Part shown: piece by piece, positions 46,656-48,899 of the stretch | Position numbering within the stretch: the stretch's first letter is position 1 | How the letters are laid out: the number at the start of each line of letters is the position of its first letter | Source of the DNA: Tequatrovirus BCH953P2 | Length of the DNA: 64,000 nucleotides | Reading direction: 5' to 3' (one strand) | Sequence record: OZ035785.1 | Position numbers and translations under genes: made by a program | Notes under the pieces: model-generated | What the model was told of the DNA's origin: nothing | What the model saw: only the letters and a program-made list of their open reading frames with translations | The model's database searches: none

Positions 46656-46684
46656 CCAAAAAGCCCCAACCTTTCGGCTGGGGC
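46656..46684 (-). terminator. intrinsic terminator
   Basis: Minus strand AGCCCCAGCCGAAAGGUUGGGGCU then UUUU; preceded by a second hairpin at 46633-46650. Confidence 0.6.
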
Positions 46685-46692
46685 TAAGAATG

Positions 46693-47166
46693 TTATTTGA
46701 TTTGTTTAGCAGACCAAATGCGGTCTTTAATAATTTTTTGGATGTCTTCAACATATTCAAGAGAGTGAACATGTGGGTTATCTTTGAAACTATAAGCACG
46801 AGCTAGCTTTTGGCCTTCAGTTTTGATTATCAAAAGTTCTTTAAGAATTGCTTCATACCTAGAGATAATTCCTTTAGCAATATTTTTTTCTTGTGCTGCT
46901 TTAGGATCAGCCTTAGGAGCAGGTTTACCTGAAGCCTTTGCAAAAGCAGCTCCAGTAGCAACTAAACTTTTCCAAGCCATACTAACTGCATTCCCTGTAA
47001 ATCCTTCGGCTTTCATATCACGAGCAAATTGGAATCGTGATTCATCGGAAGCATCTTTATAGGAATATTTACCCGCGGCAATGGCAGCTTTTGCAACAGC
47101 TTGAATTTCAGTGCTAGATGCTTCATTTAACACCGCTTCATTTAAAAATTGAGCATATGATTTCAT
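46693..47166 (-). CDS. internal-protein-like (capsid-targeted) protein
   Basis: 157 aa beginning MKSYAQFLNE (L-x-E at residues 8-10). Confidence 0.55.
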   Translation of the reverse strand: MKSYAQFLNEAVLNEASSTEIQAVAKAAIAAGKYSYKDASDESRFQFARDMKAEGFTGNAVSMAWKSLVATGAAFAKASGKPAPKADPKAAQEKNIAKGIISRYEAILKELLIIKTEGQKLARAYSFKDNPHVHSLEYVEDIQKIIKDRIWSAKQIK

Positions 47167-47211
47167 CTTATTTCCTGTTTTAATTCGTGGTTTTAATATA
47201 CTTATTTATAC

Positions 47212-47240
47212 TAAAAAGCCCCAACCTTTCGGTCGGGGCT
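47212..47240 (-). terminator. intrinsic terminator
   Basis: Minus strand AGCCCCGACCGAAAGGUUGGGGCU then UUUUU; near-duplicate of the hairpin at 46661-46684. Confidence 0.6.
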
Positions 47241-47527
47241 AAGCCTTGCGGCAACCTTGTCGGGGTTCCACCTGCTAAGGCAAGTGTTTGTGCGAAACGC
47301 CGGGACTTGAACCCGGTTATTAAGTAGTTGACGCTACTCAATATTTTTAAAAGGCCATATCTCGACCATATCCGAACGTTCCGTCAAAAACGCTACTCGG
47401 CTTACGGCAAAGATATTTCCTCGAATCGATAATTCGGTGCGCCGTTTCTGCTGTGATGTAAGAGGACATCAATAAACGCAAAGATTATTAACGCAATTCC
47501 TTACTCAGGGAACATCAGTCCGACGAC
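47241..47527 (-). ncRNA. candidate structured stable RNA
   Basis: About 290 nt without a credible ORF; contains a tRNA-like T-arm (CCGGG UUCAAGU CCCGG) and ends at a terminator. Confidence 0.3.
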
Positions 47528-48082
47528 TTACCGGTAGCGACCCGGTTTCTCATTTGGTATTTCAAATTGTGTAGATTTAGTATCTAATTTTTTAACTATG
47601 GAACTTATGTCATGAAAGAAAAACCATTCACCATTTATATGGTCCTGATTATAAATGCTGTGCATATATTTTTCAAGTTCTACTGCATCCTGGGAATATC
47701 TAAATGATACTATTTTAAAACTTTTAAACGGTGAAAATGTATTTGCTGTTATAACTCTAACATCAGGTTCTATACTTCTTCCTATTTTATAATAATTAGG
47801 ATTTGTAGTATCTACCATTATGTATACGAAAGCCTGTCGATAGCTTTTTTCTATATCAAATTCATCTTTAAATTTCAAAAGATTTAGGGCGGCAGTCCTA
47901 CAAAATACTTTCCATTTTGACAAGCGTTTGGCTTCAGTCATAGAAAAGAATTTTTTCTTATCTGTTATTTTAAGAAAAGCAACATTTTCAATTAGTTCTT
48001 GTGTTATTTCAAAATTACCATGGTATATTAATCCAGCTTTTATAGCCAAATTAATTTGGTCCCAGTCTACATCACTTCTCAT
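47528..48082 (-). CDS. T5orf172-type (GIY-YIG-like) domain protein
   Basis: 184 aa; C-terminal FVYIMVD...YYKIGRS...GEWFFF resembles the T5orf172 domain. Confidence 0.5.
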   Translation of the reverse strand: MRSDVDWDQINLAIKAGLIYHGNFEITQELIENVAFLKITDKKKFFSMTEAKRLSKWKVFCRTAALNLLKFKDEFDIEKSYRQAFVYIMVDTTNPNYYKIGRSIEPDVRVITANTFSPFKSFKIVSFRYSQDAVELEKYMHSIYNQDHINGEWFFFHDISSIVKKLDTKSTQFEIPNEKPGRYR

Positions 48083-48103
48083 AATATTATTCTCTCAATA
48101 ATT

Positions 48104-48180
48104 TGGTCAGGGTGAAAGGATTCTAACCTTTAACCTGCGGTTTAGAGGACCGCTACTCTATACAATTGAGTTACACCCCG
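48104..48180 (-). tRNA. tRNA-like, anticodon UCU (Arg), non-canonical D and T loops
   Basis: Cloverleaf folds with 7 bp acceptor stem and encoded CCA; D loop lacks GG and T loop is UUAGAAU (no C56); anticodon loop CCUCUAA. Confidence 0.5.
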
Positions 48181-48306
48181 TAATTAGTTCACAGCAATAC
48201 CTACTCCAACAATCAAGATGTCTTCACACGAAATTAAGAGAAGTGTGATCAGTTCAACCCCTATAATCGCGTCAAGTAGATATTAATGTGACAACTGTCA
48301 CAAGTT

Positions 48307-48381
48307 TGGCGGACATGCATGGATTCGAACCATGGACCAATTGATTAACAGTCAACTGCTCTACCACTGAGCTACACATCC
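48307..48381 (-). tRNA. tRNA-Asn (anticodon GUU)
   Basis: Canonical cloverleaf, T loop TTCGAAT, CCA encoded. Confidence 0.65.
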
Positions 48382-48385
48382 AAAT

Positions 48386-48472
48386 TGGTGGGGAGTGGTG
48401 GAGTCGAACCACCCGAGTCGCAATGACAATGAATTTACAGTCCACCCCGCTACCCCTACCGGATAACTCCCC
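48386..48472 (-). tRNA. type II tRNA-like, anticodon GUA (Tyr)
   Basis: GGGGAGU/ACUCCCC acceptor stem, 3 bp D stem, long variable arm, T loop TTCGACT, CCA encoded; anticodon stem has two G-U pairs. Confidence 0.5.
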
Positions 48473-48492
48473 CCCCCCCCTAATTCTTAATT

Positions 48493-48567
48493 TGGTGGCC
48501 CTGGGTGGAATTGAACCACCATCTGGCGATTATGAGTCGCTTGCTTGAACCTTCCAGCTACAGGGCC
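48493..48567 (-). tRNA. tRNA-Ile (anticodon CAU)
   Basis: Canonical cloverleaf, CCA encoded; CAU would read Met unless modified, called Ile by analogy with T4. Confidence 0.8.
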
Positions 48568-48568
48568 T

Positions 48569-48644
48569 TGGTGCTGATTGACGGAATCGAACCGCCGACC
48601 TTCTCATTACAAGTGAGTTGCTCTACCTACTGAGCTAAATCAGC
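48569..48644 (-). tRNA. tRNA-Thr (anticodon UGU)
   Basis: GCTGATT/AATCAGC acceptor stem, CTTGTAA loop, CCA encoded. Confidence 0.85.
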
Positions 48645-48649
48645 AAAAC

Positions 48650-48739
48650 TGGCGGAGGCGATAGGATTTGAACCTATGAGTCGCCGGAGCGACTGCCGGT
48701 TTTCAAGACCGGTGCATTAAACCACTCTGCCACGCCTCC
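48650..48739 (-). tRNA. tRNA-Ser (anticodon UGA), type II
   Basis: 90 nt with long variable arm; matches recalled T4 tRNA-Ser. Confidence 0.9.
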
Positions 48740-48741
48740 AG

Positions 48742-48815
48742 TCTCCGCGGCAGGATTTGAACCTACGACATTCTGCTCCCAAAGCAGACGCTCTACCAAA
48801 CTGAGCTACACGGAG
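48742..48815 (-). tRNA. tRNA-Pro (anticodon UGG)
   Basis: CTTTGGG anticodon loop; no encoded CCA; 2 nt from tRNA-Ser. Confidence 0.85.
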
Positions 48816-48825
48816 TAAATTAAAT

Positions 48826-48899
<74 letters not shown>

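Follow-up and report, generated by a model that had tools for sequence, protein, structure and literature searches.

The 64,000 nucleotides of Tequatrovirus BCH953P2 DNA analyzed here (OZ035785.1; the whole stretch is referred to as the window) carry on the minus strand an array of tRNA genes and an open reading frame (ORF) with a T5orf172 domain, which is followed by about 320 nt without an ORF of more than 53 codons, up to a terminator. The question is what this stretch encodes. A preliminary description, made from the sequence alone, had placed a structured region at 47212-47527, had read it as a single tRNA-like RNA that might be the counterpart of the two small stable RNAs of T4 or a different structured RNA, and had proposed folding with covariation analysis across related phages as well as an Rfam search as ways of checking this.

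A BLAST comparison of the region (query 47190-47540) with 50,697 phage records returned matches in 797 of them. These were nearly all of the Tequatrovirus type, from phages of Escherichia, Shigella, Yersinia, and Salmonella hosts, with phage teqskov as the best match (99.4%) and an identity of 97.6% to T4. In the record of phage RB9, the bases aligning to the region are annotated as the non-coding RNA genes rnaD (‘species II RNA’, 121 nt) and rnaC (139 nt), which come directly after tRNA-Arg. Since the region aligns with these two annotated genes, the proposed relationship to the stable RNAs of T4 proved correct, and a covariance model built from rnaC homologues (R1) detected a single copy in the window with a score of 149.8 bits (E = 7e-38). 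Judging from these alignments, the region almost certainly comprises the genes for rnaD (species 2 RNA, ∼120 nt) and rnaC (species 1 RNA, 139 nt), followed by a trailer and the terminator of the tRNA cluster. It is an already known T4-type feature, and the earlier suggestion was a correct rediscovery with nothing new as a finding. The anatomy is that of two RNAs and a trailer instead of one tRNA-like RNA. The whole region folds better than shuffled sequences (z = -4.6), in agreement with the structured character ascribed to it, but its true left edge is at 47554, ∼27 nt further upstream than thought, which places it within the 3’-terminal part of this ORF with the T5orf172 domain.

The ten tRNA genes predicted by ARAGORN on the minus strand (49065-48104) are those for Gln, Leu, Gly, Pro, Ser, Thr, Met, Tyr, Asn, and Arg, and the order on this strand is ten tRNAs, T5orf172 ORF, rnaD, rnaC, trailer, and terminator. 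The sequence of the last tRNA, tRNA-Arg(UCU) (48104-48180), is unlike that of the T4 tRNA-Arg. The ORF (47528-48082, minus strand; 555 nt, 184 amino acids) matches the Pfam families MUG113 (2.6e-9) and T5orf172 (3.4e-6) and falls into phrog_5032, with weaker matches to endonuclease and homing-endonuclease phrogs. Its insertion separates tRNA-Arg from rnaD, at a site that is empty in T4 and RB9. In these two phages the 5’ end of rnaD abuts the 3’ CCA of tRNA-Arg, whereas here the 555-nt ORF intervenes and its last 27 nt (eight codons and the stop) are rnaD sequence, spanning nearly all of the rnaD 5’ hairpin. This is a difference of context and not of the RNA gene. The bases ATACCA (47560-47555), where homology to T4 resumes, are the last six bases of a T4-type tRNA-Arg, and the same junction between the T5orf172 ORF and rnaD is found in phage VR7. 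As with segB in T4, the junction in the window resembles the outcome of a replacement of the homing type.

Comparison of the junction (window 47528-48180) with the loci L008, L009, L013, L017, L018, L021, L029, L087, L092, L106, and L122 showed that it is an insertion hot spot with at least five upstream contexts among relatives, all of which stop a few bases before ..AAGAAACCGGG. These are tRNA-Arg itself, the T5orf172 ORF, two further ORFs that end in ..GAATATTAA and ..GCCAAAATAA, respectively, and another sequence. A further peculiarity of the array is the spacer between tRNA-Asn and tRNA-Arg (48181-48306), which is 126 nt long as compared to 4 nt in RB9 and contains a palindrome (TTGTGACAGTTGTCACA) and a TTGAC box.

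The rnaD homologue, delimited by the RB9 annotation and the T4 alignment, is 120 nt long (47435-47554, minus strand) and nearly identical to that of T4, including the T4-type middle hairpin. It is composed of a 5’ hairpin, ACCGG-GUCGCUA-CCGGU (47530-47546), and one long irregular hairpin with an apical part that varies among phages. The final codons of the T5orf172 ORF contain the 5’ hairpin, which extends to 47530, the first base of the UAA stop (47530-47528). Among 18 distinct homologues, the 5’ 46 nt and the 3’ 25 nt are invariant or nearly so and the middle hairpin occurs in several unrelated versions, every one of which keeps the 5’ hairpin and the long irregular hairpin. The closing pair of the 5’ hairpin covaries (A-U in 10, G-C in 6, and G-U in 2 of the 18 sequences). 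Most stem pairs of rnaD never vary, and covariation outside the 5’ hairpin is weak because the basal helices are invariant. Together with one spacer base (47554-47434), rnaD folds no better than shuffled sequences (z = -0.67). Its 3’ end reads ...GGCGCACCG, that is CCG, whereas T4 rnaD ends in ...CACCA; the CCA end is not conserved, with CCG, CAG, and CCT also seen. rnaD was found only in T4-type phages. An origin of rnaD as a decayed tRNA-Trp, which holds the same slot in other genera, was considered and set aside, its sole support being a shared CCCUGAG heptamer.

Downstream of rnaD and the spacer AAUUA (47430-47434), the rnaC gene (47291-47429, minus strand) aligns end to end with the annotated rnaC of RB9 and with T4. 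Its homologues were gathered from phage records, IMG/VR, and metagenomes, and the resulting alignment (A3), in which at least eight genus-level lineages are represented by 23 distinct sequences (33 copies), was analyzed with RNAalifold and by an explicit count of pairs. The results support a tRNA-like four-way junction composed of a 7-bp acceptor stem, a long arm 1, an A-rich linker, a 9-bp arm 2, and a canonical T-arm. Over the 45 pairs of the model, 94.2% of the cells pair as compared to 82.8% in shuffled alignments, and double changes occur at 27 of the 45 pairs, a number reached by none of 500 shuffles. As a control, sliding the partners by one to three columns reduced pairing to 37-50%. 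The proposed folding and covariation check thus came out in favor of a structure of rnaC that is conserved across the related phages. In agreement with this, rnaC folds far better than shuffled sequences (47428-47290, shifted by one base; z = -5.07). Arm 1 is built from five short helices, and double changes occur in four of them. The T-arm CCGGG-UUCAAGU-CCCGG, correctly recognized before, lies at 47316-47300 and combines a 5-bp stem with a canonical UUCAAGU T-loop; 99% of its cells pair and compensatory changes are present at two pairs.

The acceptor stem is formed by the 5’ strand CGAUUCG (47422-47428) and the 3’ strand CGUUUCG (47293-47299) and contains a tandem U.U mismatch. This mismatch is present in every lineage but Yersinia phage TG1, in which the stem is fully paired with six Watson-Crick pairs and one G.U. 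The third pair of the stem shows a double change from A-U to G-C (13 vs 10 sequences). The 3’ strand is followed by C-A-C-A-A at the place of N-C-C-A in a tRNA.

The 6-bp acceptor-like closure that had been placed ∼185 nt upstream of the T-arm did not hold; the conserved closure is CGAUUCG at 47428-47422. Upstream of rnaC, perfect Watson-Crick pairing over 6 nt with the strand following the T-arm is possible for GAAACG (47448-47443) only. This 6-mer precedes the T-arm by 132 nt instead of 185, lies inside the 3’ end of rnaD, and takes part in the minimum-energy fold obtained for the unprocessed precursor as a whole. As a conserved pairing this closure was rejected: it is absent from the genera without rnaD and is impossible there because GAAACG belongs to rnaD.

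A further element of the predicted fold connects the two arms of rnaC that have no tRNA equivalent. The apical loop of arm 1, UUGACG (47382-47387), is complementary to the loop of arm 2, CGUCAA (47328-47333), and all six positions are complementary in 23 of 23 distinct sequences (33 copies). Three complementary haplotypes are observed, since the Klebsiella-type copies have UUGGCG/CGCCAA and Yersinia phage TG1 has UUGAUG/CAUCAA, which corresponds to two independent double changes. This suggests, from comparison of sequences, that a 6-bp kissing loop ties the two arms into a compact fold, with support from no more than two compensatory events. Pairing every base of a six-nucleotide loop is demanding on steric grounds. 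No description of a kissing loop in rnaC was found in the searchable literature, the coverage of which does not extend to the classical T4 sequencing papers.

Compared to T4, the rnaC copy in the window is also 139 nt long and differs at 4 positions, with the same acceptor stem and T-arm arrangement, AAUUA spacer, and place upstream of the cluster terminator. The T-loop is UUCAAGU instead of UUCGAAU, arm 1 contains GGUCGAG, as in RB9, instead of GGUUGAG, and the base after the acceptor stem is C instead of U; nothing differs in kind. With canonical tRNA (RF00005), rnaC shares the 7-bp acceptor stem, the 5-bp T-stem, the four-way junction, the location in a tRNA array, and a 7-nt T-loop of the tRNA-like form U54-U55-C56-purine-A58. 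In contrast to canonical tRNA, it has no D-arm or anticodon arm of tRNA size, its first arm being 72 nt long, and shows instead a 10-nt A-rich linker, the tandem U.U in the acceptor stem, arms in proposed loop contact, and no encoded CCA. YrlA and the tRNA-like domain of tmRNA are likewise non-coding, possess a T-arm and an acceptor-like helix, and are handled by tRNA enzymes, but rnaC has neither the Ro-binding helix nor a tag reading frame, and its own ends form the acceptor stem. In the searches, ARAGORN reported no tmRNA and Rfam gave no tmRNA match in the region, while YrlA (RF02553) had no match in rnaD or rnaC and only weak ones on true tRNAs at 48330-48880.

The two RNAs differ in their distribution, rnaC being much more widely spread than rnaD. 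It was found in Tequatrovirus, Gaprivervirus, Karamvirus, Tegunavirus, Moonvirus, Kanagawavirus, Gelderlandvirus, and Klebsiella Jiaodavirus-like phages, in every case inside the tRNA gene array of these Tevenvirinae genera or at its border. Outside the T4 type, most genera lack rnaD and have rnaC between tRNA-Trp and tRNA-Gly, and the spacer from tRNA-Trp to rnaC is AAUUA, AACAA, or AAUAA. In the metagenome scan, 11 of 58 candidate loci were real rnaC genes, all on T4-like contigs. In 185,579 bacterial and archaeal genomes, the pattern scan returned 38 candidates, and none was real according to the covariance model: the only one at E <= 0.01 (L057) reached 22.1 bits vs 118-156 bits for real copies. 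rnaC is kept in sequence and structure over many genera of T4-like Enterobacterales phages. The proposed search of Rfam 15 assigned neither rnaD nor rnaC to a family, even at E <= 10. The anti-hemB family (E = 4.3) was rejected as a weak chance match over the last rnaC bases, the trailer, and the terminator.

The annotation of these genes in phage records is irregular, and the re-identified RNAs are mostly unannotated, overlaid by spurious coding sequences (CDS), or mis-called. In many Tequatrovirus records the rnaD/rnaC region is blank or covered by a ‘hypothetical protein’ CDS. In several records, an annotation as ‘tRNA-Met’ (or tRNA-Phe) has been given to the 3’-terminal 95 nt of rnaC homologues, for example at the loci L004 (1254-1348) and L127 (646-740) and in the GenBank records of PG7, SonariX, id4496, and KKP_3262. 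The false call is probably caused by an internal CGGAACG that is able to pair with the acceptor 3’ strand. In the Klebsiella-type phage of locus L022, an unrelated stretch of ∼70 nt (AAUGUAAGGGGUGG...CCCACUCCAAGGUA) is located between a tRNA and rnaC, ∼75 nt upstream of the latter. It can close on itself and fills the slot held by rnaD in T4-type phages, and may represent a different companion RNA.

In T4, the tRNA cluster is transcribed into one primary transcript of ∼1.75 kb, the precursor of the tRNAs and of the species I and II RNAs; transcription ends after the species I RNA gene, and the tRNA/stable-RNA region is non-essential (PMC2330249). RNAC and RNAD of T4 have been detected by RNA-seq and classed as late RNAs, with Northern validation and a described probe for RNAC (PMC9697503). 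By analogy, rnaD and rnaC of BCH953P2 would be co-transcribed with the tRNAs and excised by the host tRNA-maturation machinery. RNase P would recognize the ‘top half’ formed by acceptor stem and T-arm and would generate the 5’ end of rnaC by a cut in or just after the AAUUA spacer, which would also free the 3’ end of rnaD. Exonucleases would then trim the 3’ ends, and the compact fold would render the RNA products stable. The RNase P step for species 1 follows from general knowledge of tRNA processing. In the window, the primary transcript would in addition carry the T5orf172 mRNA, and rnaD would be released from the 3’ end of this mRNA.

The biological roles of these T4 RNAs are stated as unknown, with no function found in about 50 years (PMC3014915), and the literature that could be searched on function or structure of rnaC and rnaD gave only statements of this kind. 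The one functional hint found, pointing to a host-dependent role, is that during adaptation of a T4-like phage to E. coli ECOR34 a convergent SNP appeared in rnaD in every line (PMC12685909). With low confidence, we infer that rnaC might, as an uncharged mimic of tRNA, occupy or titrate a protein recognizing the acceptor stem and T-arm of tRNAs, and that it would be a host-strain-dependent accessory and not essential. With the same reserve, rnaD may be a lineage-specific companion, the invariant basal helix being the functional part. A more specific and still tentative version is that rnaC, locked by the kissing loop, acts as an abundant unchargeable decoy, for example for a tRNA-end-modifying toxin or a defense effector, with rnaD as a Tequatrovirus-type add-on of related role. 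If rnaC is such a decoy, host range would be influenced. Beyond this, the by-products of the analysis could be of use in themselves, namely the covariation-supported model of rnaC, a loop-loop contact that can be tested, and the conserved tandem U.U of the acceptor stem. The model gives concrete mutants for a question of ∼50 years, the role of these abundant RNAs.

The main rival to a decoy that mimics tRNA is that rnaD and rnaC are functionless by-products, in which the tRNA-like elements do no more than punctuate processing and give the tRNA-cluster transcript a stable 3’ end, and the compact fold explains why the RNAs accumulate. We regard this as a real possibility that nonetheless falls well short of being probable. 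It would fit the dispensability of the region for laboratory growth (PMC2330249), the lack of a function after about five decades (PMC3014915), and the free swapping of the rnaD middle among phages. However, a minihelix of acceptor stem and T-arm would be enough for punctuation, yet arms 1 and 2 and the complementarity of their loops are kept by compensatory changes in at least eight genus-level lineages, and the by-product explanation is weakened because of the conservation of these three elements. The 46 nt and 25 nt of rnaD that are invariant in 18 distinct sequences and the convergent adaptive SNP in rnaD (PMC12685909) likewise argue against it.

The remaining explanations are less likely than both a decoy and a by-product. 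That rnaD and rnaC are trans-acting small RNAs regulating phage or host mRNAs by base pairing seems improbable. They are abundant late RNAs (PMC9697503), rnaC contains invariant single-stranded GAGGA and AAAAAU and rnaD the GUCGCUA loop, and the terminator hairpin and U-tail that close the trailer resemble those of Hfq-binding small RNAs. On the other hand, most of the conserved rnaC bases are locked in helices, no target has been reported (PMC3014915), and when the rest of the 64-kb window was searched for antisense targets with rnaD, rnaC, and the trailer, complementarity did not rise above chance (best 13 nt, E about 0.1) except at the duplicated terminator.

A tRNA identity, with rnaC as a genuine if aberrant tRNA or as a tRNA pseudogene in decay and rnaD as a decayed tRNA, is very unlikely. 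Such an identity could account for the canonical T-loop, the 7-bp acceptor stem, the place of rnaC in a tRNA array, the 95-nt ‘tRNA-Met’ that some GenBank records assign to part of an rnaC homologue, and the ...CACCA end of T4 rnaD. Neither ARAGORN nor the Rfam tRNA model, even at E <= 10, found a tRNA at 47291-47554, though, and rnaC lacks an anticodon arm arranged as in a tRNA; a pseudogene would not preserve 27 pairs through double changes, and the variable CCA end of rnaD speaks against a tRNA as well. Finally, the implication of the many ‘hypothetical protein’ CDS annotated over the match, that the region encodes small proteins, is hardly credible, since the ORFs inside the region, which had rightly been described as holding no credible one, are limited to 44-53 codons and start with TTG or GTG, the longest stop-free frame shifts in frame, strand, and length between close relatives so that no ORF is conserved among the related phages compared, and substitutions are compensatory in RNA helices.

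The primary transcript continues beyond rnaC with a conserved 3’ trailer of 50 nt (47241-47290, minus strand), near-identical in T4-type phages, which contains two small hairpins, CACUUGC/GCAGGUG and GCC-GCAA-GGC. Trailer and terminator together fold better than shuffled sequences (z = -4.08). In the almost invariant trailer CCCCGAC is present twice, and the first copy could rival the 5’ strand of the terminator for GGUUGGGG, giving a possible alternative structure. The intrinsic terminator of the tRNA/stable-RNA unit (47212-47240) has a 10-bp stem with 7 G-C pairs and a GAAA loop at 47240-47217, followed by UUUUU, in accordance with a Rho-independent terminator. Both its strength and the near-duplicate reported 550 bp further on were confirmed, the second stem-loop (46662-46685, minus strand) being identical in 22 of 24 bases and located 555 bp downstream at 46685-46662.

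The sequence between the two terminators belongs to a self-contained cassette (46662-47216) that directly follows the rnaC terminator, is absent from T4 and RB9, and is closed by the second terminator copy. It carries a perfect T4 late-promoter box, TATAAATA, at 47210-47203 and an ORF of 157 amino acids (46693-47166) that belongs to phrog_2280 and has no Pfam match. T4-type downstream sequence (GGTATCTA..) starts again directly after the second terminator, and therefore insertion of the cassette duplicated the terminator or recombined through it. The cassette is common to many relatives, in which BLAST matches join the two pieces over about 890 bp.
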